A DNA stretch of 64,000 nucleotides. Origin: Pseudomonadota bacterium. GTDB taxonomy: Bacteria > Pseudomonadota > Gammaproteobacteria > Steroidobacterales > Woeseiaceae. The notes under the pieces are model-generated. The model saw only the letters and a program-made list of their open reading frames with translations. It was not told where the DNA came from and did no database searches. Location: the NCBI GenBank assembly GCA_038531945.1, contig JBCBBH010000001.1:147456-211455 (forward strand), read 5' to 3'. The position numbers and the translations under genes were made by a program. Position 1 is the stretch's first letter, and the number at the start of each line of letters is the position of its first letter. This document shows positions 23,850 to 36,028 of this stretch, in pieces.

Positions 23850-23877
23850 TTGACAGCGTTTTAAAGCTGCGTATACT
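23850..23877 (+). promoter_or_regulatory. near-consensus sigma70 promoter (TTGACA, 16-nt spacer, TATACT)
   Basis: TTGACA at 23850-23855 and TATACT at 23872-23877. The predicted TSS at about 23884 sits 2-3 nt before an ATG. Confidence 0.6.
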
Positions 23878-24281: not shown

Positions 24282-24358
24282 GCTAACGTAGCTCAATGTG
24301 GCAGAGCAGCTGTCTTGTAAACAGCCGGTTGTGAGTTCAACCCTCACCGTTAGCTCCA
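24282..24358 (+). tRNA. tRNA-Thr(TGT)
   Basis: Full cloverleaf folded by hand. Acceptor GCTAACG/CGTTAGC, D arm TAGCTC..GAGC, anticodon loop CTTGTAA, T loop TTCAACC, CCA encoded. Confidence 0.8.
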
Positions 24359-24363
24359 TTTAT

Positions 24364-24448
24364 GGAGAGGCAATCATTGGCGAGAATAGCCGGCTGTAAC
24401 CCGGTGGTCCTTATGGCCTTGTAGGTTCAATTCCTACCCTCTCCACCA
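24364..24448 (+). tRNA. tRNA-Tyr(GTA), long variable arm
   Basis: Acceptor GGAGAGG/CCTCTCC, anticodon loop CTGTAAC, long variable arm, T arm GTAGG-TTCAATT-CCTAC, CCA. The D arm is atypical. Confidence 0.65.
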
Positions 24449-24450
24449 AC

Positions 24451-24522
24451 GGATCGGTAGCTGAGACAGAATAGCGGCTGGCTGAAGACCAGCAGACGAT
24501 GGTGCGACTCCATCCCGATCCA
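24451..24522 (+). tRNA. non-canonical tRNA-like gene, anticodon GAA (Phe-like)
   Basis: Perfect 7-bp acceptor GGATCGG/CCGATCC. Anticodon stem-loop GCTGG-CTGAAGA-CCAGC. The D loop lacks G18G19 (AGACAGAA) and the T loop is TGCGACT, so T54-Psi55-C56 is absent. No encoded CCA. Confidence 0.45.
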
Positions 24523-24526
24523 CCGT

Positions 24527-24602
24527 TGCCGTGTAGCTCAACAGGTAGAGCAGCCGACTGTTACTCAGTTTGTTGATGGTTCAAATCCATCCATGGCAGC
24601 CA
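24527..24602 (+). tRNA. tRNA-Asn(GTT)-like
   Basis: Acceptor TGCCGTG/CATGGCA with disc G and CCA. Canonical D and T arms. Anticodon loop CTGTTAC with C37 and one C-A mismatch in the anticodon stem. Confidence 0.55.
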
Positions 24603-24606
24603 CCCC

Positions 24607-24682
24607 GGGGGATTAGCTCAACGGGTAGAGCACCTCGTTTGCAACGAAAAGGCTCTCGGTTCAAATCCGAGATCCTCCACCA
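24607..24682 (+). tRNA. tRNA-Ala(TGC)-like (G3:U70 present)
   Basis: Acceptor GGGGGAT/ATCCTCC with a G3-U70 wobble. Canonical D and T arms. Anticodon loop TTTGCAA, but the anticodon stem has two C-A mismatches at its base. Confidence 0.5.
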
Positions 24683-25152
24683 AATTTCGAGTCATCGGTA
24701 TTACCGAGGCTCTTGATAGCGGCCTGGCGCTGCTAACCGTCGGTAACGGCGGGAAAGGAACGCACCCATGGCGTTTCGCCGAGACTTGAGTTTCGGTCAC
24801 TCCAGGCAAGTTCGGCCTCCGGTTGTTCTCGGCACTGTCGGGAATAGCGGCCAAGCGATACGCGGAAGTAGCGTGACTGACGCACCGGCAATGTCGGGAA
24901 TGCGGGTCCGTGAAAGAACACGTGGTGGTGCAACCCGCGACACCAATATCGTCAACCGTGAGAGGTAACGAATAGTGCAGTTCAGTGCGAGCCTTGCAGG
25001 CAAGTGCGACTGTGCAGAAGGCGAGGGTTCTGGTGGTCAGCCAGCGTCCTTTTCATCGGTCAAGTAGCCGGCAGGTGAACGACATTCGGCGTGTTGTATT
25101 TCGTCGCCCAAAAGGTGGCGAAGCGACTGAGGCGCGCACGTCGCAGTGGGAT

Positions 25153-25223
25153 TGTGATTTAGCTCAATGGCAGAGCGATTGCCCAGCAAGCAATAGGTGC
25201 AGGTTCGACTCCTGTGTTCACGA
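25153..25223 (+). tRNA. non-canonical tRNA-like gene (anticodon loop CCAGCAA, C33, A34-G35-C36)
   Basis: Canonical D arm (TAGCTCAATGGCAGAGC) and T arm (GCAGG-TTCGACT-CCTGT). Perfect anticodon stem ATTGC/GCAAT. The loop carries C33 and A34. The acceptor has one mismatch. No CCA. Confidence 0.35.
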
Positions 25224-25579
25224 CTAACGTCAAACGCAAAGACGCGCCTCGGTACGCCGTCGAAAATGGCTTAAGGCCGGAGTCTACGGACAATCCGGCG
25301 GTTGGATCAGCCGCAAGTTGATCGGACCTTGGCAGCAAGCCGCACGGTCGGGAAGCCCCCGTTTGGAGCCCGCAAGGCTCACGGTACGCAAGCTGCTGAC
25401 TAGACGTGTACTACAAGTGCATCGCCGCACTTCAAAAAAGGCAGTCATGGTCTTCGACTGTCGAGTTGGCTTCGGCCAATCGGCAGTGGACAAGCACGCA
25501 ACGAGTGTCACGCACGGCATTCGGTACTCGTGCGAACGGAGGACTACAAAGCGCCTAGTCTCAGCGCTTTTCCTTTTCC

Positions 25580-25655
25580 GCCACGATAGCTCAATCGGAA
25601 GAGCATCGGATTGTCGATCCGAAAGATGTCGGTTCGAGTCCGATCCGTGGCGCCA
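25580..25655 (+). tRNA. tRNA-Asp(GTC)
   Basis: Cloverleaf folds cleanly. Anticodon loop TTGTCGA, T loop TTCGAGT, CCA. One A-C mismatch at 7-66. Confidence 0.8.
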
Positions 25656-25661
25656 TTCTTC

Positions 25662-25737
25662 GATCCTGTGGGCTAACGGTTAGGCCACCAGACTTTCAAT
25701 CTGGGGATTGCGAGTTCGAGTCTCGCCAGGATCACCA
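25662..25737 (+). tRNA. tRNA-Glu(TTC)
   Basis: Acceptor GATCCTG/CAGGATC, anticodon loop CTTTCAA, T arm GCGAG-TTCGAGT-CTCGC, CCA. Confidence 0.8.
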
Positions 25738-25739
25738 AA

Positions 25740-25866
25740 TGACCAGTAGCTCAGCGGGTAGAGCACACGCCTGATATGCGTGAGGTCGCACGTTCAACGC
25801 CAGGCAGGATGCCTCAGTGCCGCGTAGCACAGGACGTGCGAGAGCGGCCCGTCGCCTGGTCAACCA
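25740..25866 (+). tRNA. split/interrupted tRNA-Ile(GAT)-like gene (about 68-nt insertion replacing the T arm)
   Basis: The 5' half is canonical: acceptor TGACCAG, D arm, and anticodon arm CACGC-CTGATAT-GCGTG plus variable AGGTC. The matching 3' acceptor CTGGTCA-A-CCA is found only at 25856-25866. The intervening 25788-25855 forms three hairpins rather than a T arm. Confidence 0.35.
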
Positions 25867-25872
25867 AACACT

Positions 25873-25949
25873 CTGCGTGTAGCCAAACTGGATAAGGCCC
25901 CTGACTTCGAATCAGGAGATTGAGAGTTCGAGTCCCTCCGCGCAGGCCA
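25873..25949 (+). tRNA. tRNA-Arg(TCG)
   Basis: Acceptor CTGCGTG/CGCGCAG, anticodon loop CTTCGAA, T loop TTCGAGT, CCA. One mismatch in the T stem. Confidence 0.7.
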
Positions 25950-25955
25950 AACACT

Positions 25956-26033
25956 CTGGGAGTAGCTCAGCCTGGTCAGAGCACTTGCCTTGGAAGCAAG
26001 GGGTCGCTGGTTCAAGTCCAGCCTTCCAGACCA
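25956..26033 (+). tRNA. tRNA-Pro(TGG)
   Basis: Acceptor CTGGGAG/CTTCCAG, anticodon stem-loop CTTGC-CTTGGAA-GCAAG, T arm GCTGG-TTCAAGT-CCAGC, CCA. Confidence 0.8.
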
Positions 26034-26058
26034 ACGTTTCGAAACCGGAGCGCTACAA

Positions 26059-26146
26059 GGAGACTCGCATGGCTGGCGTGCTTATCGGTCTTGAAAACCG
26101 TGATGTCCTGACGGGCGTGGGGGTTCGATCCCCACAGTCTCCGCCA
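26059..26146 (+). tRNA. tRNA-Ser(TGA), long variable arm
   Basis: Acceptor GGAGACT/AGTCTCC, anticodon CGGT-CTTGAAA-ACCG, long variable arm, T loop TTCGATC, CCA. Position 8 is C and the D arm is atypical. Confidence 0.65.
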
Positions 26147-26152
26147 ATCGAT

Positions 26153-26230
26153 GGTGTATCTAGCTTAATCGGCAAAAGCTCCGGGCCGTGACCCCGGGAG
26201 ATATCGGTTCGAGTCCGATGATTCACCCCA
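26153..26230 (+). tRNA. tRNA-His(GTG) with G-1 and C73, anticodon loop CCGTGAC (C33)
   Basis: G-1 is present and the discriminator is C, the His identity set. Anticodon stem CCGGG/CCCGG. The loop has C at position 33 instead of the near-universal U. One T-T mismatch in the acceptor. Confidence 0.6.
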
Positions 26231-26236
26231 ATTCAT

Positions 26237-26328
26237 GGAGATGTGGCCGAGTGGCTTAAGGCACTCGTTTGCTAAACGAGAGAGGGCTCGAAAGTCCTTC
26301 CCAGGTTCGAATCCTGGCATCTCCGCCA
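26237..26328 (+). tRNA. tRNA-Ser(GCT), long variable arm
   Basis: Acceptor GGAGATG/CATCTCC, D arm TGGCCGAGTGGCTTAAGGCA, anticodon CTCGT-TTGCTAA-ACGAG, long variable arm, T loop TTCGAAT, CCA. Confidence 0.8.
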
Positions 26329-26337
26329 TTTGTCTAT

Positions 26338-26408
26338 TGAGAGGGAGGCGGTCTCAGACGAGAGTCATAACCTCGTTGTCGTCGGTTCGAATCCGACCCT
26401 CTCGACCA
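26338..26408 (+). tRNA. tRNA-like gene with CAT anticodon and truncated D arm (71 nt)
   Basis: Acceptor TGAGAGG/CCTCTCG with A and CCA. T arm GTCGG-TTCGAAT-CCGAC. Anticodon loop GTCATAA. Only about 14 nt are available for the D region. Confidence 0.4.
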
Positions 26409-26477
26409 TTACTTTCTAGCTCAGCCGGCATAACGTCGCTCTCGCAGAGAGGCAGTCGGCGAGAAAATCGAACAACT

Positions 26478-26555
26478 ACGGCTATAGCTCAGCGGAAAAA
26501 GAGCGCGACCGTGCGAAGGTCGAGGACGGAGGTTCAAATCCTTCTAGCCGTGCCA
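26478..26555 (+). tRNA. tRNA-Arg(GCG)
   Basis: Perfect acceptor ACGGCTA/TAGCCGT, D arm TAGCTC..GAGC, anticodon CGACC-GTGCGAA-GGTCG, T loop TTCAAAT, CCA. Confidence 0.65.
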
Positions 26556-26561
26556 AACCAT

Positions 26562-26636
26562 TCAGCGATCGTCTAACCGGTAGGACACCAGACTTTGACT
26601 CTGGAAGTAGAGGTTCGATTCCTCTTCGCTGAGCCA
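26562..26636 (+). tRNA. tRNA-Gln(TTG)
   Basis: Perfect acceptor TCAGCGA/TCGCTGA, anticodon CCAGA-CTTTGAC-TCTGG, T arm AGAGG-TTCGATT-CCTCT, CCA. Confidence 0.8.
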
Positions 26637-26641
26637 ACAAC

Positions 26642-26715
26642 AGGTCGCTCTTCTAACGGCAAGATAACGGATTCCAAACCCGTGAATCGGTGTTCGACTC
26701 ACCGGCGGCCTGCCA
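26642..26715 (+). tRNA. tRNA-Trp(CCA)
   Basis: Acceptor AGGTCGC/GCGGCCT, anticodon loop TTCCAAA, T arm CGGTG-TTCGACT-CACCG, CCA. Confidence 0.75.
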
Positions 26716-26721
26716 ACAACT

Positions 26722-26796
26722 GATGCTGTGGTCAAATGGCAAAGGCGCGAGGTTGCAACCCTCGAGATGACAGTTCAACTCTGTCCAGCATCTCCA
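26722..26796 (+). tRNA. tRNA-Cys(GCA)
   Basis: Perfect acceptor GATGCTG/CAGCATC, anticodon CGAGG-TTGCAAC-CCTCG, T arm GACAG-TTCAACT-CTGTC, CCA. Confidence 0.8.
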
Positions 26797-26885
26797 CGGC
26801 CAGACACAGCGAGTAGTTCAAACATCGGACGCTCCGTCGACGAATCGATTTATGAGATAGCGGCCAGAAAAGGCTTTCTTGAAGC

Positions 26886-29228
26886 TTACCGCACACCCAA
26901 TGGCGTGAACTCGTATCGCTCAGAAACTGCGCATCGCTGCAATGATCGCGTGACGACGACGCCGGACGATATGAAATTCACCGTGATGTCGCGATGGTCG
27001 ATTGCACCCTGAAACGATCCTTGTGCGGACTCAATGATCAGTACCTGCTTGGAATCATCGTAGTGCAATTGGGTGACTCGACGTTCACCGCGGCGCCACG
27101 CCTCAGTACGGTCATCGTCTTCGATCAGACGAAAGTGACCATTGGCTCCGGTGTACACGTCTATCACTAACTTCGACTTGTCGATAAAGGCAGTGGTGAG
27201 TGCGTACTCTCGTTTCGGAATGATGGCACCAGCACGGACGTAAAGCGGCATGGCGTTGTTCTCTTGGGTAAGTACTTGCTCGCCATCGAGAAGGTCGCCA
27301 CCACCGAGTGGATACCAGCCACCGTTTGGAAGCCAGACGCTGGTGTGGCTTTGATCGACAACCGGTGCAACAAGAATGCTGGGGCCGAACATAAACTGAA
27401 GATCGCGCTTCCAAGCAGATTCACTGTCAGGAAACTCGAGTAACATCGGCCTTGCGATAGGCAGGCCGGTGTCGGCAGCCTCATGCGCCACCGAATACAG
27501 ATAGGGCATCAACTCATAACGCAGTCGCCCATAGCGGTGTGCTGCAGCAACGCTCGATTCACTGCGATCAAGAGGCCAGCGCGACTGACCCATACCGTGC
27601 GGTTTCCAAATGGGTGCGAACGCACCAAGCGCCATCGCCCACCGTTGATATAGCGATTCGTCGGGACCGCTGCCTTGGTCCCAATCGAAAAAGCCGCCGG
27701 CATCATGCCCCCAAAACGGGAAGCCAGCGAGACCGGCCAATTGCATCGCACGGATCTGCGACGCCATATCGTCGTCGTTGGGTTTAATATCACCGCTCCA
27801 TAGCGTCGCATAGCGTTGGGCGCCCGCGGTCATGCCGCGCACCCATACGAAAGGTCGATTGATGATCGGTGACCGATCCCAACCCTCTGCCACGAGCGCT
27901 TTGGCGATCAAAAAAAACCAGTAGTTCCGCATCTCGGCTGAACTGCGCCCATTGGCAAGCACGATGTCTTTCGGTGCCGCGCCCTGCTCGTCGAACTCGT
28001 CGATCCAAAGCGCATCACCCGGGAAGTTGAGAGCGGGATTTAGTGATTTCTCGTAAAACACCTGCCAGAACCAGCGACGAAAGTCCGGGTTCGTCAAATC
28101 CGGCGCACTTTCCGGAAACTCGATATTGTCGATCGTCGGAAGATTAAACGACGAAGTCCAGCCGTCCGAGAAACGTGCGATGCAGCGGTTGAAGTCGATC
28201 GTTGAGACCAACCCATTGCCTTCCAGCCATGTTGCCCAGGCGACAGGATCTGGGTAGCGAGTTCGGTCCCATTCGATTTTCGACTCACAACGCTTGCCGC
28301 CCGCCGCGCGCCACCGGTTATCGTTGACCACGTGATCCAACGGCAGTCCCGCAATACGGTGCGATTGGATCTTGTCTTTCCACCACGCTTCATCGGAAGG
28401 CGTATCAGAGTTGTGATCGTGACCCTTGTCCGACAGCTGCAGGCCGAACATCGACTTCATTGGCAGGCGTGGACGGCCCGTCAATTGTGTATAGCGATCG
28501 ACTACTGCCTTCAACGAAGGTCCCGCGATGAACACATAGTCCATCTGTCCGGTAAACCCGTGGGTGTCAATCGCGATGCTGTAGTCCCCATCCGCATTCA
28601 ATGCAAATCGGTTAGGGAACGTACTGTTGAGAAAGACGCCGTAGCCGCGACTCGATAGATAAAAGGGAACGATTAGCGGTGCCTGCTCGACGGGTTCGCT
28701 GCCATAGTTGCGCTCTACGATGGAACCCGAAAGATCTAGCCGATCCGCGCGCGCGAAATAGCCGTGGCCCAGACCGGTGAAGCGCTCGCCGTCCACGGGC
28801 ACGAATCGAACACCGCGTTCGTCGCCTGCTCGGTACGAGCCCATTTTTTCTTGCAGAATCGGTGTGGTGCTTTGTGCGGTCTCGAATGAGACTGCTAGCG
28901 TTTCGCGATCGATCACCACTTTGAGTTCACTCGATTGCAGTACCACTGTATCGCTGTTAGTTGCGACATCAACACTGCTCGTCCAATCGTGTGACTCGAT
29001 CATCTCGTAATAGCTATCCGGCAGAAACGCCTCGCCGTCGTGGGCGGTTTGCAGACGTACCATTGCGTCGCCGAACCACAATATTCTGAGGGTGCGCGAA
29101 CCATCTGGCGACTCGACATAGAACGCACGAGAGTCGGTATGGAACTGGGACGCTGCACAGCCGCACAGGACTAAGACGGCAGTGGCGAGCAGGCTGAGTT
29201 TCACTTGTGTTTTTGTCGGCACGTTCAT
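26886..29228 (-). CDS. glycoside hydrolase family 31 (alpha-glucosidase/alpha-xylosidase-like) lipoprotein
   Basis: GH31-like core with a candidate nucleophile region (ALWIDEFDE). Start re-set to ATG 29228 (MNVPTKTQ...LVLCGCAAS lipobox). The track's 39-aa extension overlaps the neighbouring gene. Confidence 0.7.
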   Translation of the reverse strand: MNVPTKTQVKLSLLATAVLVLCGCAASQFHTDSRAFYVESPDGSRTLRILWFGDAMVRLQTAHDGEAFLPDSYYEMIESHDWTSSVDVATNSDTVVLQSSELKVVIDRETLAVSFETAQSTTPILQEKMGSYRAGDERGVRFVPVDGERFTGLGHGYFARADRLDLSGSIVERNYGSEPVEQAPLIVPFYLSSRGYGVFLNSTFPNRFALNADGDYSIAIDTHGFTGQMDYVFIAGPSLKAVVDRYTQLTGRPRLPMKSMFGLQLSDKGHDHNSDTPSDEAWWKDKIQSHRIAGLPLDHVVNDNRWRAAGGKRCESKIEWDRTRYPDPVAWATWLEGNGLVSTIDFNRCIARFSDGWTSSFNLPTIDNIEFPESAPDLTNPDFRRWFWQVFYEKSLNPALNFPGDALWIDEFDEQGAAPKDIVLANGRSSAEMRNYWFFLIAKALVAEGWDRSPIINRPFVWVRGMTAGAQRYATLWSGDIKPNDDDMASQIRAMQLAGLAGFPFWGHDAGGFFDWDQGSGPDESLYQRWAMALGAFAPIWKPHGMGQSRWPLDRSESSVAAAHRYGRLRYELMPYLYSVAHEAADTGLPIARPMLLEFPDSESAWKRDLQFMFGPSILVAPVVDQSHTSVWLPNGGWYPLGGGDLLDGEQVLTQENNAMPLYVRAGAIIPKREYALTTAFIDKSKLVIDVYTGANGHFRLIEDDDRTEAWRRGERRVTQLHYDDSKQVLIIESAQGSFQGAIDHRDITVNFISSGVVVTRSLQRCAVSERYEFTPLGVR

Positions 29229-29242
29229 ACTCAGGTGTTCGG

Positions 29243-29974
29243 CTAGTTCGAGAAACCCCAAAGACCAATGTTGTCGAATTGAACACGCTTCGGCAGTTGC
29301 AGCAGGAAAAGCACCGCAGCGGCAAGGTCTTCGGTTTGCAACCAACCCGGTGTCATCTCATCCGCAACTTTGGGCTTTGGCACTTGCACAAGACCTGGGC
29401 ACAAGCTGTGAACCTTGATGCCGAATTCGCGGACTTCTTCCTGCAAGGCGAGTCCGAAACCAAGAACGCCGAACTTCGCGGCGCAGTAAGGCGCTGCCTC
29501 GGCGTAACCATTCTTGGCCGCTTGCGACGCGATATTGATGATGAAGCCGCTCCGGTTCGCCTGCATGGTCGGCAGCACCGCCTGACTCATAAGGAACGTA
29601 CCTTTGGTACAGGTCTCAAGTACGAGATCCCAGTTGGCCTCGGGACAATCGATGACCTTATCGGTCACACCGAGTCCCGAATTGTTGATCAAGAAATCAA
29701 CGCCGCGGTATTGAGCGAGTGTCTCTTCGACGATCGCTTGAACCTGCGCTTTGACACGCACGTCGGCAGCGACTCCGATGCAGTTCGACTCAAACTCATC
29801 GTTGAGTTCCGCCGCAGTTTCGGTGAGCAGGTCTGCACGTCGCGATGTGATCACCACGTCGACACCGCTCGCCATCAGGCCCCGAGTAATCGCCAGGCCG
29901 ATACCCGAGGCACCACCCGTGACAATGGCCGTTTTCCCTCGCAAATCGCTTGAGGAAGCAGTCAGTTCATTCAT
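29243..29974 (-). CDS. SDR-family oxidoreductase
   Basis: KTAIVTGGASGIGLAI Rossmann motif. Start re-set to the internal ATG 29974. The track start 30094 would run into the tRNA-Lys gene. Confidence 0.75.
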   Translation of the reverse strand: MNELTASSSDLRGKTAIVTGGASGIGLAITRGLMASGVDVVITSRRADLLTETAAELNDEFESNCIGVAADVRVKAQVQAIVEETLAQYRGVDFLINNSGLGVTDKVIDCPEANWDLVLETCTKGTFLMSQAVLPTMQANRSGFIINIASQAAKNGYAEAAPYCAAKFGVLGFGLALQEEVREFGIKVHSLCPGLVQVPKPKVADEMTPGWLQTEDLAAAVLFLLQLPKRVQFDNIGLWGFSN

Positions 29975-30013
29975 GGCTCGGCAGTATAGATCAGGTCTGC
30001 TTGATGCATCATC

Positions 30014-30089
30014 GAATCGATAGCTCAATCGGCAGAGCACCCGGCTCTTACCCGGGAGGTTGTGAGGTCGGAACTCACTCGATTCACCA
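30014..30089 (+). tRNA. tRNA-Lys(CTT), T loop GTCGGAA (non-canonical T54)
   Basis: Perfect acceptor GAATCGA/TCGATTC with A and CCA. Anticodon CCCGG-CTCTTAC-CCGGG. T stem GTGAG/CTCAC, but the loop starts with G rather than T. Confidence 0.6.
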
Positions 30090-30095
30090 AACAAT

Positions 30096-30170
30096 AGCCC
30101 GATAGCTCAGCAGTAGAGCACCGCTCTCACAAAGCGGAGGTCGGTGGTGCAACCCCACCTCGGGCGACCA
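30096..30170 (+). tRNA. non-canonical tRNA-like gene, anticodon CAC (Val-like)
   Basis: Anticodon CCGCT-CTCACAA-AGCGG. The D loop AGCAGTA lacks GG and the T loop is TGCAACC, the same co-variation as in the Phe-like gene at 24451. A1-G72 mismatch. CCA encoded. Confidence 0.45.
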
Positions 30171-30307
30171 CTTTTGACGCAATTCCGTCATACCGAGGTC
30201 TGAATTGTCGCCAAGTTCTGCGGACCGGGTTCTTTGAATTCCCGACTGGCGCGCAACGCTAACCATCGCCGCGCGTGTACCGAACGAAACGGCATTCTCA
30301 CCGCCAC

Positions 30308-30384
30308 TGGAAATTAGCTCAGATGGGTAGAGCATACGACTCATAATCGTACGGTCGCAGGTTCAACTCCTGCATTTCCCACCA
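30308..30384 (+). tRNA. tRNA-Met or tRNA-Ile2 (CAT)
   Basis: Anticodon TACGA-CTCATAA-TCGTA. Canonical D and T arms. The 1-72 pair is a T-C mismatch. CCA. Confidence 0.7.
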
Positions 30385-30681
30385 CTGGCTTCCACAGCCA
30401 TCCTGGCGAAAAGAACGAGAGTTCTGCGGTTCGAATCCGCCCTTGCAGAGAGATTCTGCACCACCGCGACTGTGTCCAGCGAACGGCAATGCGAGCTTGC
30501 TCGCGTTGTCTGACGCAGCAACCGGTTCGCCGGTCGCCGTGCTGGTCCGTACGCCGAACCGATTCCCGAAACGACGCCGGACTGTGTGCGCTCGCACTCG
30601 CGTCGTGTGTCGAATCGCGTCTCGGTTCCGCCTACGCACCACCGGCTGCCCGCGCACGGGTTGTGGACACAGCCGCACCCA

Positions 30682-31269
30682 TCAAAAATCCGCGCCTGAC
30701 TTCAGCGTAAACACCACAGAAATCTCAAGTTGGTTGTTGCGCTTCTCGGGCGTTGCGAGAAGCGCGAATTGACCAAGTGCTTGAGAGCGAGCGATGTCCC
30801 GTTCAGAAAGCAGAGAGTCGTCGGCAAGAAAGACCTTCGGCGCCCATTGGTTTCCGTACTCTTCGGATACCAATGTGAAGTGAATATGGGCGGCCTCGCG
30901 GCCGAGATGGTCCGCAGCCGGACGGATGGTTTGGAACACAAACTCACCGCATTCGTCTGTGATCGCCCAACCTTGCAATCGCCACATCGTGAGCTCGCGA
31001 TCGTTTCGGCCCAGTTCGAAACCTTCAGCGTCGCGATGATAGGAATGCACGACGACGTTGGGTGCGACTTCGCCAACAGGCGTAAAGACTGTCCCGCGCA
31101 CTACAAGCGGCTCACCCGGCTCATCGGGCGAACCAATCCGCGACACCGATGACAATGGAACACTCTTTGCCGCAATCGCTTCGTGCCAAGCGCGAAGCCA
31201 GGCTGGATCAACGTCGCCGGCAACAGAAGCGCCGCTCCATAGCGCTGCGCAAAGAACCCAATATTTCAT
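30682..31269 (-). CDS. secreted intradiol ring-cleavage dioxygenase-like protein
   Basis: Signal peptide. AAHIHF iron-ligand-like motif. Size and pattern resemble small protocatechuate-dioxygenase-like lipoproteins. Confidence 0.4.
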   Translation of the reverse strand: MKYWVLCAALWSGASVAGDVDPAWLRAWHEAIAAKSVPLSSVSRIGSPDEPGEPLVVRGTVFTPVGEVAPNVVVHSYHRDAEGFELGRNDRELTMWRLQGWAITDECGEFVFQTIRPAADHLGREAAHIHFTLVSEEYGNQWAPKVFLADDSLLSERDIARSQALGQFALLATPEKRNNQLEISVVFTLKSGADF

Positions 31270-31357
31270 CCACGACCCTCAGTTGGACTTCACTTCCTGT
31301 TAGATAGTAGATCGGACTGAGAGGTTTAACTCACTGACCAACAAAGGAGGTGCTTTG

Positions 31358-32644
31358 ATGGCTCACTCATCGAGCCAGGCCAGTCGCGTAGCCGACTGGG
31401 TACGAAATCGCAACGAGCAAGCACTGGCTTTGGCGCGTCGCGAGAACAAACGCATGTTTCCGACTACAGAAACATACAACGATAACAACCAAGGAGAACG
31501 CAACATGTTTTACATGAAGTTCAACGTGCGCAAGCACGAGCGTGCACTCCTGTTCCGCGACGGCGATTTCGTCAAGTTCCTTGAGCCTGGCGTGCACCGT
31601 TTCGTGACGGTTTTGCACAAGTACACGGTCGAATCGTTCGACATCACGGTACCGCTATTCGCACACCGGCTGCAGGACTTCCTGGTGGAGTCCTACGCAG
31701 AGGATGTCGCTCGCTACTTCGACGTAGTGACGACCGATGCCAATGAGATCGCCATCGTCTACCACGACGAGCGTGTCACGCTGATCATGGCTCCAGCCAC
31801 GCGCCATCTCTTCACGAAGGGTGTGCGCAAGATTCGCGTCGAGCGCTTTGCGATCACCGGTGATGTCGACGTCGACGCCCGTTTGGCCAAGCGCCTGTTG
31901 ACGGGCGACGACCGAACGTTGCAGGCGATCGCTGAGAAGGCGATCTACGCGCGCATCGTGTCGGACGGCCACGTGGGCTTGCTCTACGTGGATGGTGAAT
32001 TGAAGCGCTCACTGGCACCGGGTTACCACGCGTTTTTCGCGGTGGAGCGCGATGTCGAGGTGAAGTGCTTCGATACGCGTGTGCAGACGCTGGAAGTCTC
32101 CGGCCAGGAAATCCTGACCAAGGACAAGGTGGCTGTGCGCATCAACCTGACTGCAACCTACCAGTACGCCGATGTGGAAGCGGCTGTGCGTGCTGCGAAG
32201 GACCCGCTGGATCACCTGTACAAGGAAGTGCAGTTCGGTTTGCGCGGTGCGGTCGGTACCCGAACGCTGGATGCTTTGCTTGAAGACAAGACGGTCATCG
32301 ACACGTCGGTGGCACGTCATCTCGATGAGCACTTCGAAGCAATGGGTATCACGGTGAAGTCCGTTGGCGTGAAGGACATCATCCTGCCGGGTGACATGAA
32401 GATGTTGCTGGGTCAGGTGGTGGAGGCCGAAAAGGCCGCGCAGGCCAACGTGATTCGCCGTCGCGAAGAGACCAACGCGACCCGTTCACTTCTGAACACC
32501 GCGAAGGTCATGGAGACGAACGCTGTGGCGTTGCGTCTCAAGGAGCTCGAGACGCTCGAGAAGATCACCGACAAGATCGGCAACATCTCGGTTTACGGCG
32601 GCCTCGATGCCGTGTTGAACGACCTGGTTCGCATGAAGCAGTGA
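31358..32644 (+). CDS. SPFH/Band-7 (stomatin/flotillin-like) domain protein
   Basis: Band-7 core (ILTKDKVAVRINLTATYQ...KDIILPGDMK...EAEKAAQANVIRRREETNA). ATG 31358 has an AGGAGG RBS. A second possible start, ATG 31505, also has an AGGAG RBS. Confidence 0.8.
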   Translation: MAHSSSQASRVADWVRNRNEQALALARRENKRMFPTTETYNDNNQGERNMFYMKFNVRKHERALLFRDGDFVKFLEPGVHRFVTVLHKYTVESFDITVPLFAHRLQDFLVESYAEDVARYFDVVTTDANEIAIVYHDERVTLIMAPATRHLFTKGVRKIRVERFAITGDVDVDARLAKRLLTGDDRTLQAIAEKAIYARIVSDGHVGLLYVDGELKRSLAPGYHAFFAVERDVEVKCFDTRVQTLEVSGQEILTKDKVAVRINLTATYQYADVEAAVRAAKDPLDHLYKEVQFGLRGAVGTRTLDALLEDKTVIDTSVARHLDEHFEAMGITVKSVGVKDIILPGDMKMLLGQVVEAEKAAQANVIRRREETNATRSLLNTAKVMETNAVALRLKELETLEKITDKIGNISVYGGLDAVLNDLVRMKQ

Positions 32645-32728
32645 GTTCGACCAACCGGCGAGAGGTCAGGTGCAAGGCCTGGCCTCTCGCCATCTATTCG
32701 CCTTCGGTGTACCGAAGGCAATCCCAAC

Positions 32729-32804
32729 GGTGAATGTAGCTTAATGGCAAAGCCCCAGGCCGTGACCCTGGAAGATGCCGGTTCGACCCCGGTGGTTCAC
32801 CCCA
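32729..32804 (+). tRNA. tRNA-His(GTG) with G-1/C73, anticodon loop CCGTGAC (C33), second copy
   Basis: G-1 plus discriminator C. Anticodon stem CCAGG/CCTGG with the same C33-containing loop as the His gene at 26153. One G-G mismatch at 7-66. Confidence 0.55.
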
Positions 32805-32810
32805 AACACT

Positions 32811-32888
32811 AGCCGTCTGAAGGGAATTGGCATACCTACCTGTCTTAGAAACAGGTGCTTCTCGGTTCGACTCCGAGGGCGGCTACCA
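32811..32888 (+). tRNA. Leu-anticodon (TAG) tRNA with short variable arm (class-I-like)
   Basis: Leu-type D loop (GGAATTGGCA) and A73. Perfect anticodon stem CCTGT/ACAGG with loop CTTAGAA. It has a 5-nt variable loop in place of the long arm that all bacterial tRNA-Leu normally carry. Confidence 0.55.
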
Positions 32889-32943
32889 ATTTTTCTGGGC
32901 AGAGCTGACTGGGCGTCTTCAGGGCGTGGTACCAATGGCGTGA

Positions 32944-34032
32944 ATGCCTACTCCTTGGGTTCACTCTCGTCTTTATTCGTGGCCGATACGCACGCACAAT
33001 CAGGTAGGGTGCATTGAGTCGAGCATCGGAATTAGCAGACGGCGAATAGTTGTGACCACACGAACTCGAAACGTTCTCCTGTTCGGCCTACTCGTTGTGG
33101 TCGGAATCGCAATGGTCAAGATACGAAATCCGAGCGTCGACCTCGCTGTTGATCGACAAGATATCGGCAGCACTGTATCCGCGGAGGAAATCCCAAAACC
33201 AGGGGCGATAACAACTCTGGCCGACGCGCCCGGCGATGCGTTCGCTGATGCCGCAGCTTCAGCGGTCGCTACCGTCCCTGACGAGACCTGCGTCCGAGCC
33301 AAGGACGTGGAGATGCTGCTCTTGAGTTCCAGTGAGCCGCAGCGAATTCAAAACCTGATGTCCTACGGAGAGTGGTTCAACGACTACGCCGGCGTCGATG
33401 AAGCAACACTCGAATCACTTGCTGATCAACTCGACACCAAGGCGATGATCGTCCTTGGGACTCAAGCCGAGTTTCGTGCCATCGGTAGGGACCCTGCACT
33501 GGCGGTCGAGAAACTCAACGGAAGTGCCGTGAGAGAGAATGTCCAAAACAATGCCTTTGACGCTTGGTTGCGAGACCGAGAACGTATCGATGCCCATCGA
33601 AAAGATGTCGAAGCAGCTCGCGACTGGTATTACCAAGCTGCACTCCTTGGCGATCTCGGCGCTCTCCCTTTTCTTGGTGACGTACAGCTGGCGTTAGAAG
33701 AAACACCCGTAAGTCTCGGTTGGATTAGCCAAGAGGACTTCGATCAACTCCCTCGGCAGGCGCAAAACCCTAATGAGGTGCGTGGCGCTTATGGTGTGGC
33801 GGCTACTCGAATCGCTCCGAACGCCGGTACTGGATACGCTGGTTTACTACAGGGAATCTACGAGATATCGCTTACGCATAAGCCGTTCGCGGACGCGTTA
33901 GCGGAACAGTACAAACGCGACCGCGCCGATCTCGGCCTGCCACCGCTTGAGGTTCCACCGGCTGAGATTTCTCTGGATGAGTTAAGAGACCTTGCGGCAC
34001 GGCTCTGTCCTGGCGAAGAAGATTTCCTCTGA
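32944..34032 (+). CDS. hypothetical membrane-anchored protein
   Basis: N-terminal TM segment (VLLFGLLVVVGIAMV) and an acidic/helical C-terminal domain. No recognisable family. The start is uncertain. Confidence 0.4.
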   Translation: MPTPWVHSRLYSWPIRTHNQVGCIESSIGISRRRIVVTTRTRNVLLFGLLVVVGIAMVKIRNPSVDLAVDRQDIGSTVSAEEIPKPGAITTLADAPGDAFADAAASAVATVPDETCVRAKDVEMLLLSSSEPQRIQNLMSYGEWFNDYAGVDEATLESLADQLDTKAMIVLGTQAEFRAIGRDPALAVEKLNGSAVRENVQNNAFDAWLRDRERIDAHRKDVEAARDWYYQAALLGDLGALPFLGDVQLALEETPVSLGWISQEDFDQLPRQAQNPNEVRGAYGVAATRIAPNAGTGYAGLLQGIYEISLTHKPFADALAEQYKRDRADLGLPPLEVPPAEISLDELRDLAARLCPGEEDFL

Positions 34033-34090
34033 CCAACAGTCTTGGTCAACACCATGATCGAGCTTGGCTCGACAAATGGCCTCAACCAAA

Positions 34091-34167
34091 GCGCAGCTGA
34101 CGGGAAAGGCATACCTGGATAGCTCAAACCTATTCGTTTCCCCGTTCGAATCGGGGGCTGCGCACCA
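34091..34167 (+). tRNA. Leu-anticodon (CAA) tRNA-like gene with short variable arm, 45 nt upstream of the HNH-RtcB operon
   Basis: Perfect acceptor GCGCAGC/GCTGCGC with A73 and CCA. T arm CCCCG-TTCGAAT-CGGGG. Anticodon GATAG-CTCAAAC-CTATT. The D region TGACGGGAAAGGCATACCT is paralogous to that of the TAG Leu-like gene. 5-nt variable loop. Confidence 0.5.
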
Positions 34168-34211: not shown

Positions 34212-34799
34212 ATGATGGAACAAATTTTGAAACTCGATGTGGGCGGAAGACCGATTGGTTGGATCACCCAGGAACAAGGCGCGCTGCTGTATTGCAGAGA
34301 TCAAGTCGCGTGGGAAGCCGGCGACCAGACGATCGTGTTACGCGGTGGATTCTCGCGTGTGACGGGACACCGTTCGATGTTGACGATCAACAGTATCGTC
34401 GCGACCACGAGCATCGACCAGTCGGCAGACAACTGGGCCGGCGGAACGGCGCTGACGAACGCGGCACTGTTCCGACGGGATCAGTACCTGTGCTTGTACT
34501 GCGGTGGATCGTTCAGCCGATCCGCGTTGACGCGAGATCACATCGTTCCGGTTTCGCGCGGCGGTGAGGACTGCTGGGAAAACGTTGTGACCGCGTGTCG
34601 CGCCTGCAATCAGCGGAAGGCGGATTTTCTGCTAGCCGAGTGCGGCATGTCGTTGCTGGCAACACCGTACGTCCCTAACCGAGCCGAAGGATTGATTTTG
34701 AATAATCGGCGAATTCTTTGCGACCAGATGGCGTTTCTGCAAACGCGCGTCGGTCCGCAAAGTCGAGTCGCTAGGACGAACAAGAGAGAAGAACAATGA
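34212..34799 (+). CDS. HNH endonuclease
   Basis: CLYCGG...TRDHIVPVSRGGEDCWENVVTACRACNQRK is a classic HNH/HNN zinc-finger nuclease motif. Its stop overlaps the rtcB start (ATGA). The track start is GTG 34200 and the ATG is at 34212. Confidence 0.8.
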   Translation: MMEQILKLDVGGRPIGWITQEQGALLYCRDQVAWEAGDQTIVLRGGFSRVTGHRSMLTINSIVATTSIDQSADNWAGGTALTNAALFRRDQYLCLYCGGSFSRSALTRDHIVPVSRGGEDCWENVVTACRACNQRKADFLLAECGMSLLATPYVPNRAEGLILNNRRILCDQMAFLQTRVGPQSRVARTNKREEQ

Positions 34800-36028
34800 A
34801 CAACGTAACGGAAAACTACGACGTCCTGTTTGATGGGGGCGTACCTGTAAAGCTGTGGACGCGTGGCGTCCCAACAGACGAACGCGCACTGGATCAACTG
34901 CGTAAGGCAGCCTCGATGCCGTTTATCTACAAGCACATCGCAGTCATGCCGGATATGCACGTCGGTAAGGGCTCGACCATTGGTTCGGTGATCCCAACCA
35001 AGGGCGCAATCATTCCTGCCGCGGTCGGTGTGGATATCGGTTGCGGCATGATGGCCGTGCGCACGAGTCTTAACGCGTCTGACCTGCCCGACAACCTGTT
35101 CGCGATTCGTTCGGCAATTGAAGCGGCGGTGCCGCACGGTCGGTCGAGCGGTCGCGGGAAGCGGGATAAGGGCTCGTGGGGCGAAGCGCCCGAGGCATCG
35201 TTGGATGCCTGGGGTAGCGGTCTCGCCGCGCGGTTCTCGCAACTGGTAGAGAAGCACCCTCGCCTTGCGAAGACGAACAACTTGAACCACCTGGGAACGC
35301 TCGGAACAGGCAACCACTTCGTTGAAGTGTGCCTGGACGAAGCGCAATCGGTTTGGTTCATGTTGCACTCGGGTTCGCGCGGTGTCGGTAACGCGATCGG
35401 GATGCACTTCATTGCGCTGGCTCAGCGTGAGATGGAGCGCTTCTTCATCCACCTGCCGGATCGGGATCTCGCCTACCTTGCCGAAGGCACCGAACACTTC
35501 GACGACTACGTCGAAGCGGTCGGTTGGGCGCAGGACTTCGCGCTGGCAAATCGTCGCGTGATGATGCTGCACACGATCCGTGCGGTGCGCGATGCGCTTG
35601 CTCGCCACTTCGATGCGGAACTTGAGGCCGTGAACTGTCACCACAACTACGTGGAGCGGGAGCATCACTTCGGTGAGAACGTACTCGTGACGCGCAAGGG
35701 TGCGGTCAAGGCAACGAAGGGTACGATGGGCATTATCCCAGGCTCGATGGGCGCCAAGTCGTTCATTGTGCGCGGACTCGGAAACGAGGAGAGCTTCTGC
35801 TCTTGTTCGCACGGTGCCGGTCGCATCATGTCGCGGACGCAAGCGAAGAAGGCGGTGTCGTTGGCCGAGCACAAGGCGGCGGTGGCGCACGTCGAATGCC
35901 GGGTCGATGCCGATGTTGTGGATGAAACGCCATCCGCGTACAAGGACATCGATGCGGTGATGGCGGCCCAGGATGATCTCGTTGAGATCGTCCACACGCT
36001 ACGCCAGGTCGTTTGCGTGAAGGGCTAA
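34796..36028 (+). CDS. rtcB: RNA-splicing ligase RtcB (3'-phosphate/5'-OH RNA ligase)
   Basis: RtcB family motifs include ...HNYVEREHHFG... and ...CSCSHGAGRIMSR. About 410 aa. Confidence 0.9.
   Translation: MNNVTENYDVLFDGGVPVKLWTRGVPTDERALDQLRKAASMPFIYKHIAVMPDMHVGKGSTIGSVIPTKGAIIPAAVGVDIGCGMMAVRTSLNASDLPDNLFAIRSAIEAAVPHGRSSGRGKRDKGSWGEAPEASLDAWGSGLAARFSQLVEKHPRLAKTNNLNHLGTLGTGNHFVEVCLDEAQSVWFMLHSGSRGVGNAIGMHFIALAQREMERFFIHLPDRDLAYLAEGTEHFDDYVEAVGWAQDFALANRRVMMLHTIRAVRDALARHFDAELEAVNCHHNYVEREHHFGENVLVTRKGAVKATKGTMGIIPGSMGAKSFIVRGLGNEESFCSCSHGAGRIMSRTQAKKAVSLAEHKAAVAHVECRVDADVVDETPSAYKDIDAVMAAQDDLVEIVHTLRQVVCVKG

Follow-up and report, generated by a model that had tools for sequence, protein, structure and literature searches.

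The tRNA-Phe(GAA) and tRNA-Val(CAC) genes of a 23-gene tRNA array, located in the 64,000-nucleotide stretch of DNA analysed here (the window), carry A at position 18 and G at position 55, and comparison of tRNA sequences within and beyond the array showed that the canonical G18-U55 combination is replaced by a covarying A18-G55 combination. As this replacement covaries, the 18-55 contact is probably kept in another form. With a probability that we put at about 0.8, both genes, as parts of an accessory chromosomal array, encode functional elongator tRNAs that would use an alternative but equivalent contact between D-loop and T-loop, and rather than being two odd tRNA-like genes they are ordinary members of a widespread and recognizable A18-G55 covariant class of functional tRNAs.

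All 23 tRNA genes of the array lie on the + strand with intra-block spacers of 2-7 nt, most of them with an encoded CCA, and the Rfam tRNA model (RF00005) recovered most of the genes detected by ARAGORN. A tally of some 20 tRNA genes or more, with varied isotypes, a common strand and gaps of a few bases, is among the hallmarks of an accessory tRNA array, and all of this was found here. ARAGORN and Rfam also reproduced the positions initially given for the Phe-like and Val-like genes. The relevant features of the region are as follows.

23850..23877, + strand: sigma-70-like promoter match TTGACA-16-TATACT, 11/12 (consensus match only)
24282..34167, + strand: tRNA array, 23 genes in four blocks (ARAGORN), 19 amino acids (without Gly and Ile)
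24451..24522, + strand: tRNA-Phe(GAA) (ARAGORN; Rfam RF00005, 60.4 bits)
24464..24471, + strand: D-loop of tRNA-Phe, AGACAGAA, in the CM alignment A14 G15 A16 C17 A18 (24468) G19 (24469) A20 A21
24503..24509, + strand: T-loop of tRNA-Phe, TGCGACT, that is T54 G55 (24504) C56 (24505) G57 A58 C59 T60
30096..30167, to 30170 with the encoded CCA, + strand: tRNA-Val(CAC) (ARAGORN; Rfam RF00005, 59.1 bits)
30109..30115, + strand: D-loop of tRNA-Val, AGCAGTA, in the CM alignment A14 G15 C16 A18 (30112) G19 (30113) T20 A21
30148..30154, + strand: T-loop of tRNA-Val, TGCAACC, that is T54 G55 (30149) C56 (30150) A57 A58 C59 C60
34200-34799, + strand: HNH endonuclease gene, directly downstream of the last tRNA
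34796-36028, + strand: RtcB RNA ligase gene (Pfam E = 6e-127), its reading frame overlapping the HNH gene

The promoter match, which precedes the first tRNA gene by ∼400 nt, is a candidate for the promoter of the array. A helix-turn-helix protein gene was found upstream of the array and an SPFH protein gene inside it, and the neighbouring genes encode a glycoside hydrolase, an SDR, a dioxygenase and the SPFH, HNH and RtcB proteins, the last two of which may form an array-linked tRNA damage/repair module. Comparison of 37 ORFs with Pfam and PHROG assigned a TonB-dependent receptor, polysaccharide lyases, GH31, SDRs, an ECF sigma factor and similar proteins to the wider window, and detected no integrase and no virion or phage structural genes in it. 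The GC content is ∼56% along the whole window. A phage origin of the window was considered and rejected, as a BLAST search of the array against phage genomes returned single-tRNA-sized matches only and integrase and virion genes were missing; a plasmid origin was likewise discarded, the likeness to Priestia and other plasmids being at the tRNA level only. The window is thus treated as chromosomal, and the array as an accessory tRNA island in it, possibly one that is little used.

Both genes belong to the tRNA family RF00005 by full-length scores above the gathering score of 29: their 60.4 and 59.1 bits are in the range of the neighbouring tRNAs, and all 71 positions of the model (1-71) are covered. 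Infernal, used to align both genes to this model, placed A18, G19, U54, G55 and C56 at high posterior probability in Phe and Val. The initial annotation had rightly recognized that neither D-loop contains a GG, and these are the sole two such loops among the 23 of the array; the D-loop numbering is alignment-based, the loops having no other G-G, and the choice between 16/17 and 18 is not provable from sequence. It had gone on to propose that both G18 and G19 were lost, which the CM alignment contradicted by placing A under the consensus G18 and G under the consensus G19 in both genes. Likewise, TGC had been read correctly in both T-loops but was taken to replace T54-Psi55-C56 as a whole, whereas TGC represents T54 G55 C56, so that the sole change is that of U55 to G, with T54 and C56 retained. 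From this numbering, together with A18 and G19, it follows that the G19-C56 pair is intact in Phe and Val, so that only one of the two tertiary pairs held to be missing is affected, and that the buried 18-55 contact would be exchanged and not deleted. C56 was kept in 263 of 263 G55 tRNAs among the matches listed. The two genes thus present G19 and C56 of the canonical elbow set G18, G19, U55 and C56, with A18 and G55 instead of the other two. The absence of a D-loop GG at 18-19 and the presence of G55 are both confined to the same two of the 23 array tRNAs, for which the probability by chance is 1/253; the remaining 21 have U55, C56 and a GG in the D-loop.

Phe and Val share with a canonical bacterial elongator tRNA (RF00005) the full cloverleaf, U8, A14, G15-C48, U33, T54-A58, G19-C56, a 7-nt T-loop and A73, and they differ from it in having A at 18 and G at 55. 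Psi55 is formed by TruB and Gm18 by TrmH; from the known chemistry of these enzymes, A18 and G55 make both modifications impossible on the variant tRNAs. The cloverleaf of tRNA-Phe consists of the acceptor stem GGATCGG/CCGATCC, the D-stem GCTG/TAGC, the anticodon loop CTGAAGA, the T-stem GATGG/CCATC and the discriminator A. The acceptor and anticodon helices, initially described as well paired in both genes, are so in Phe, and also in Val save for A1-G72 (30096, 30166) at the top of the acceptor stem, where 1:72 was marked as a non-standard pair. In L072, a Woeseiaceae (Gammaproteobacteria) MAG and the closest relative among the matches listed, the tRNA-Val orthologue has T1-G72. At the 3' end of tRNA-Phe, A73 is followed by CC at 24523-24524 and then by G (24522-24526), leaving the CCA incomplete, unlike in the L072 orthologue where the full CCA is encoded. 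Either A1-G72 in Val or the CC-only end in Phe could reduce activity. The anticodon loop of tRNA-Phe (24482-24488) carries G37, as do the array homologues. A37 is usual in bacterial tRNA-Phe, and it was also seen in the variant tRNAs of Pelagibacter.

Beyond the window, a pattern requiring an AG D-loop and a TGC T-loop matched 20 viral contigs, and a slightly wider loop pattern, applied to one genome per species, matched at least 119 loci. All tRNAs in the 139 loci listed and in the window were then parsed (905 tRNAs), and coupling was counted in the 767 among them which did not match the search pattern and whose loops were thus unselected. Since A-G is not a standard pair for helix-pair counting, 18:55 was tested by contingency tables. 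Among the matches listed, 592 of these 767 tRNAs combined GG with U55 and 115 combined AG with G55, while AG occurred with U55 in five and GG with G55 in four, all of the latter reading ..AGG..; the resulting 18 × 55 table (115/5/10/637) gave a Fisher p = 1.3e-117. Mixed states were likewise few when unique sequences were considered, with eight unique AG+U55 tRNAs among the matches listed. A cleaner view was provided by a loop-blind metagenome scan, in which the anticodon arm of the window tRNA-Phe served as the query and both loops were left free. Together with the window and L072, the tRNA-Phe homologues comprised eight with AG+TGC, 15 with GG+TTC, two with GG+CTC and none with a mixed state. 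The homologues include near-isogenic pairs of tRNA-Phe genes, such as L174 and L171, whose D- and T-loops differ at positions 18 and 55 alone: L174 has the D-loop region AGATGGTG with the T-loop TTCGAGC (longer excerpts GCTGAGATGGTGTAGC ... GCGGATTCGAGCGCCGC), and L171 has AGATAGTG with TGCGAGC (longer excerpts GCTGAGATAGTGTAGC ... GCGGATGCGAGCACCGC). With hundreds of tRNAs from bacteria and phages showing this coupled exchange, it represents an alternative design that works, as opposed to decay.

The gene order Thr(tgt)-Tyr-Phe-Asn-Ala(tgc)...Asp-Glu...Pro-His-Lys(ctt)-Val is common to L072 and the window, and so is the SPFH gene. The tRNA-Phe of L072 is 88% identical to the window gene and keeps A18 G19 and TGC, with compensatory differences between the two at 2:71 (G-C to A-T) and 13:22 (G-T to C-G); its tRNA-Val has the anticodon TAC and the D-loop ACCGAGAA, and again keeps A18 G19 and TGC. 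The variant tRNA-Phe was also found, with compensatory stem changes, in the syntenic, Woeseiaceae-like arrays L143, L145, L149 and L162, while in the syntenic array L168 tRNA-Phe is canonical with GG and U55, once more not mixed. Unconstrained drift in orthologues, which had been named at the outset as the sign of pseudogenes, was not seen. Covariation bore out the conservation of the fold, as 15 of 21 cloverleaf pairs showed double compensatory changes in a set of 11 variant tRNA-Phe sequences of unrelated origin. Compensatory changes in relatives thus indicate that the cloverleaf of a tRNA (RF00005) is being maintained. Selection for an altered elbow, as originally suggested, therefore has to be divided: conservation in orthologues and covariation argue that the coupling is selected, whereas no evidence was obtained for an altered function and an equivalent elbow is indicated.

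Other tRNAs of the same family of arrays depart from the canonical elbow in different ways. The window tRNA-Lys(CTT), at 30014-30089 on the + strand, has the T-loop GTCGGAA, in which G54 and G58 replace the T54-A58 reverse-Hoogsteen pair. The orthologous Lys(ctt) genes have G54 T-loops as well, GTCGGTA in L072 (5137-5212) and L168 and GTCGATA in L145, and the G54 T-loops GTCGAGA and GTCGGTA occur in Thr(tgt) of related arrays, the Lys(ctt)/Thr(tgt) cases being located in L145, L162 and L168. Comparison of these sequences makes the G54 T-loop the second conserved way in which T-loops of these arrays deviate from the canonical form. The 19:56 pair was also found to covary in array tRNAs, D-loops of the type ..GA.. 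being accompanied by TTT (A19-U56) in nine unique cases and D-loops of the type ..GC.. by the T-loop TTG (C19-G56) in about five. Such swaps are located in L072 (4268-4343 and 7664-7737), in Arg(acg) of L005/L015, in Ala(tgc) of L134, L143, L145 and L168, in Ile(gat) of L149 and in Gln/Ser/Gly genes of L152, L153, L156, L157, L158 and L164.

The two genes, initially called independent, are no isolated pair of events. They belong to a class that extends over at least 19 isotypes, many bacterial phyla and phages, with 216 unique G55 tRNAs in 19 isotypes among the matches listed. A variant tRNA-Ile(GAT) exists as a single chromosomal gene in Endomicrobia, Elusimicrobiota and Omnitrophota, and in a complete Endomicrobiaceae chromosome it is placed between the 16S and 23S rRNA genes. 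Likewise, a variant tRNA-Met(CAT) is a single chromosomal gene in Saccharibacteria and other Patescibacteria, and variant tRNA-His and tRNA-Phe are single genes in Pelagibacterales, including the isolates HIMB114, HIMB109, HIMB1517 and CODY6. Arrays with the variant were found in Myxococcota, Gemmatimonadaceae, Verrucomicrobiota, Acidobacteriota and others, with one to all of the tRNAs of an array affected; L104 (7/7) and L087 (9/12) are wholly or nearly wholly variant. Among viruses, Acinetobacter phage Acj9, which is T4-like and in culture, has an annotated tRNA-Phe of the variant type with the D-loop AGACAGAT and the T-loop TGCAATT, and the 20 viral contigs carry mostly initiator-like tRNA-Met, besides one tRNA-Phe and one tRNA-Ile. 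The phage initiator-like tRNA-Met show C1 opposite A72 and three G-C pairs (GGG/CCC) at the base of the anticodon stem; this family (L003-L016 and L018-L020, IMG/VR) is A18/G55 throughout, with the D-loop AGYAGAA and the T-loop TGCGACT. The occurrence of the variant in single genes, arrays and phages, including the tRNA-Ile of an rRNA operon, suggests that the variant elbow is compatible with normal translation, and as the class spans at least 19 isotypes, many phyla and phages and includes housekeeping tRNAs, there is no evidence for a functionally altered elbow. The class comprises tRNAs, in some lineages apparently essential, which are obliged to work without Psi55 and Gm18.

A structural precedent for such a contact is available from other RNAs. 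In the canonical tRNA elbow, G18 is inserted between 57 and 58 and hydrogen-bonded to Psi55, while G19-C56 provides an exposed flat face for the ribosome, RNase P, T-boxes and many proteins; for cytoplasmic tRNA, G18 is described as conserved and Psi55 as universally conserved (PMC4810234). The T-loops of FMN and cobalamin riboswitches, in contrast, are of the type UGNRA, mostly UGNAA, the intercalating base is an adenosine in 99.96% of FMN riboswitches, and in the env8 structure two hydrogen bonds connect the intercalated adenosine with the G at position 2 along its sugar edge; tRNA is singled out as the exception among T-loops owing to its U at position 2 (bioRxiv 10.1101/2022.12.26.521914). 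TGCGA-CT of Phe and TGCAA-CC of Val are loops of the UGNRA type, with U1, G2, R4, A5 and two trailing nucleotides. With the riboswitch T-loops (env8, PDB 4FRG) they have in common the U-G-N-R-A sequence, the U-A reverse-Hoogsteen closure and two bulged nucleotides, as well as a partner-loop adenosine which could intercalate and contact the position-2 G at its sugar edge. Unlike in the riboswitches, the loop stands in a tRNA context, with a geometry deduced for tRNA by analogy, and C56 (position 3) is still Watson-Crick paired with G19. Across the 216 unique variants among the matches listed, T54, G55 and C56 are invariant, R57 is present in 100% and A58 is invariant save for a rare G. A57 was found in 56% of variants versus 17% of canonical tRNAs (G57 83%) among the matches listed, a shift in line with the UGNAA consensus.

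By analogy with the riboswitches, A18 would intercalate between the purine at 57 and A58 and hydrogen-bond to the sugar edge of G55, so that a riboswitch-type contact would be formed inside a tRNA, with the outer G19-C56 platform unchanged and the L-shape preserved. Presumably, Phe and Val would be part of the array transcript, from which RNase P and 3' nucleases would trim them; PheRS and ValRS would charge them, in keeping with the anticodons GAA and CAC and the discriminator A73, before their use on the ribosome. With such a contact, the general UGNRA-plus-adenosine solution known from other RNAs would be open to the tRNA elbow as well.

Three other explanations were weighed against functional elongator tRNAs with an equivalent contact. 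The least probable of them, and one to which we give hardly any credence, is that the two genes are decaying pseudogenes in a redundant array and that the D- and T-loop changes are unrelated random substitutions. The accessory appearance of the array, the 1:72 mismatch in Val and the incomplete CCA in Phe could be read in this way, but decay is contradicted by CM scores of ∼60 bits that equal those of neighbouring tRNAs, by the coincidence of the two changes in the window and their covariation across the loci among the matches listed, and by orthologues which conserve both changes along with compensatory stem changes. A special purpose off the ribosome, either a cell-wall role like that of the Staphylococcus tRNA-Gly or service as decoys for tRNA-targeting toxins, is very unlikely, if slightly less so than decay. 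The non-proteinogenic tRNA-Gly of S. aureus and S. epidermidis, which functions in cell-wall synthesis, also lacks the D-loop G18-G19 and has U18U19 or C18U19 instead (PMC4574755); it is therefore, like Phe and Val, a natural bacterial departure from G18-G19, and the unusual A1-G72 of tRNA-Val might be taken as a further pointer in this direction. However, the staphylococcal tRNAs have G19 replaced too, whereas Phe and Val keep G19 and C56 and belong to a class including housekeeping translational tRNAs, with the A18/G55 elbow present in translation-bound tRNAs such as the rRNA-operon tRNA-Ile and the tRNA-His and tRNA-Phe of streamlined genomes. Neither the replacement of both G18 and G19 nor a link to cell-wall genes, which characterize the non-proteinogenic tRNAs, was observed, and no cell-wall, Fem-type or natural-product genes were found adjacent to the array. 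The staphylococcal analogy was rejected because G19 is lost as well in those tRNAs and because the variant serves as an rRNA-operon tRNA-Ile.

The third explanation is compatible with functional tRNAs and an equivalent contact and concerns the cause of the exchange. It holds that A18-G55, together with the other elbow variants of the array family, was selected in phages and mobile tRNA arrays as an adaptive 'stealth' elbow, from which the U55/Psi55 and G18 needed by T-loop-directed nucleases or host modification enzymes are gone and in which the G19-C56 platform for translation is kept. We consider it improbable, yet clearly ahead of the two preceding explanations. Arrays and phages are indeed rich in the variant, loci with at least eight tRNAs holding 132 of the 216 unique variants among the matches listed; it occurs in the phage initiator-like tRNAs and in phage Acj9, and some arrays are almost entirely variant. 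The G54 T-loops of Lys(ctt)/Thr(tgt) and the 19:56 swaps add further T-loop oddities to the array family, and the HNH nuclease and RtcB genes just downstream of the array suggest a setting of tRNA damage and repair. If this explanation held, A18-G55, the G54 T-loops and the A19-U56 and C19-G56 swaps would be spread by phages and mobile arrays, and the tRNAs of arrays and phages would be resistant to, or independent of, host factors such as toxins and modifying or chaperone enzymes. This explanation is weakened by the fixation of the variant in housekeeping tRNAs of lineages both free-living and symbiotic, for which escape from defence is no obvious driver, and by its presence in just two of the 23 tRNAs of the window array. 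In arrays retrieved with the loops left free, G55 occurred in only ∼5 of ∼330 tRNAs other than Phe; no nuclease or enzyme discriminating the A18-G55 pair was identified.

In the full texts searched, among which only a minority of subscription journals are represented, we found no description of a natural A18-G55 pair in tRNA, although U55G appears in a few tRNA papers. A18-G55 is thus a new or at least little-documented tRNA variant, which curators of tRNA databases may well have seen. For annotation, tRNA genes with A18 and G55 are not to be flagged as pseudogenes. As a natural double mutant, the A18/G55 tRNAs also lend themselves to probing the roles of the 18-55 contact and of TruB in folding and translocation.

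Two further elements were detected in the first part of the array.

25084..25567, + strand: GOLLD-like RNA (Rfam RF02032, 131.6 bits, E = 2.9e-35; gathering score of 150 not reached)
25740-25807, + strand: weak tRNA-like match (28.8 bits against the gathering score of 29), between tRNA-Glu and tRNA-Arg

The GOLLD-like RNA, in which tRNA-Ala(AGC) is embedded (25153-25224), is part of the context of the array and not of the elbow variant. GOLLD RNAs are reported to occur close to tRNA islands and to harbour tRNAs within the linker (bioRxiv 10.1101/2024.12.08.627333), and the present combination agrees with this association in a setting that is chromosome-like and gammaproteobacterial. With the GOLLD-containing accessory arrays of phages, prophages and Mycobacterium, the window shares some 20 closely set tRNAs and a GOLLD-like RNA with an embedded tRNA; it differs from them in its chromosome-like location among polysaccharide-utilization genes, in showing neither an integrase nor phage structural genes, and in a GOLLD score below the gathering score. 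The weak match at 25740-25807 may be a degenerate 24th tRNA of the array.
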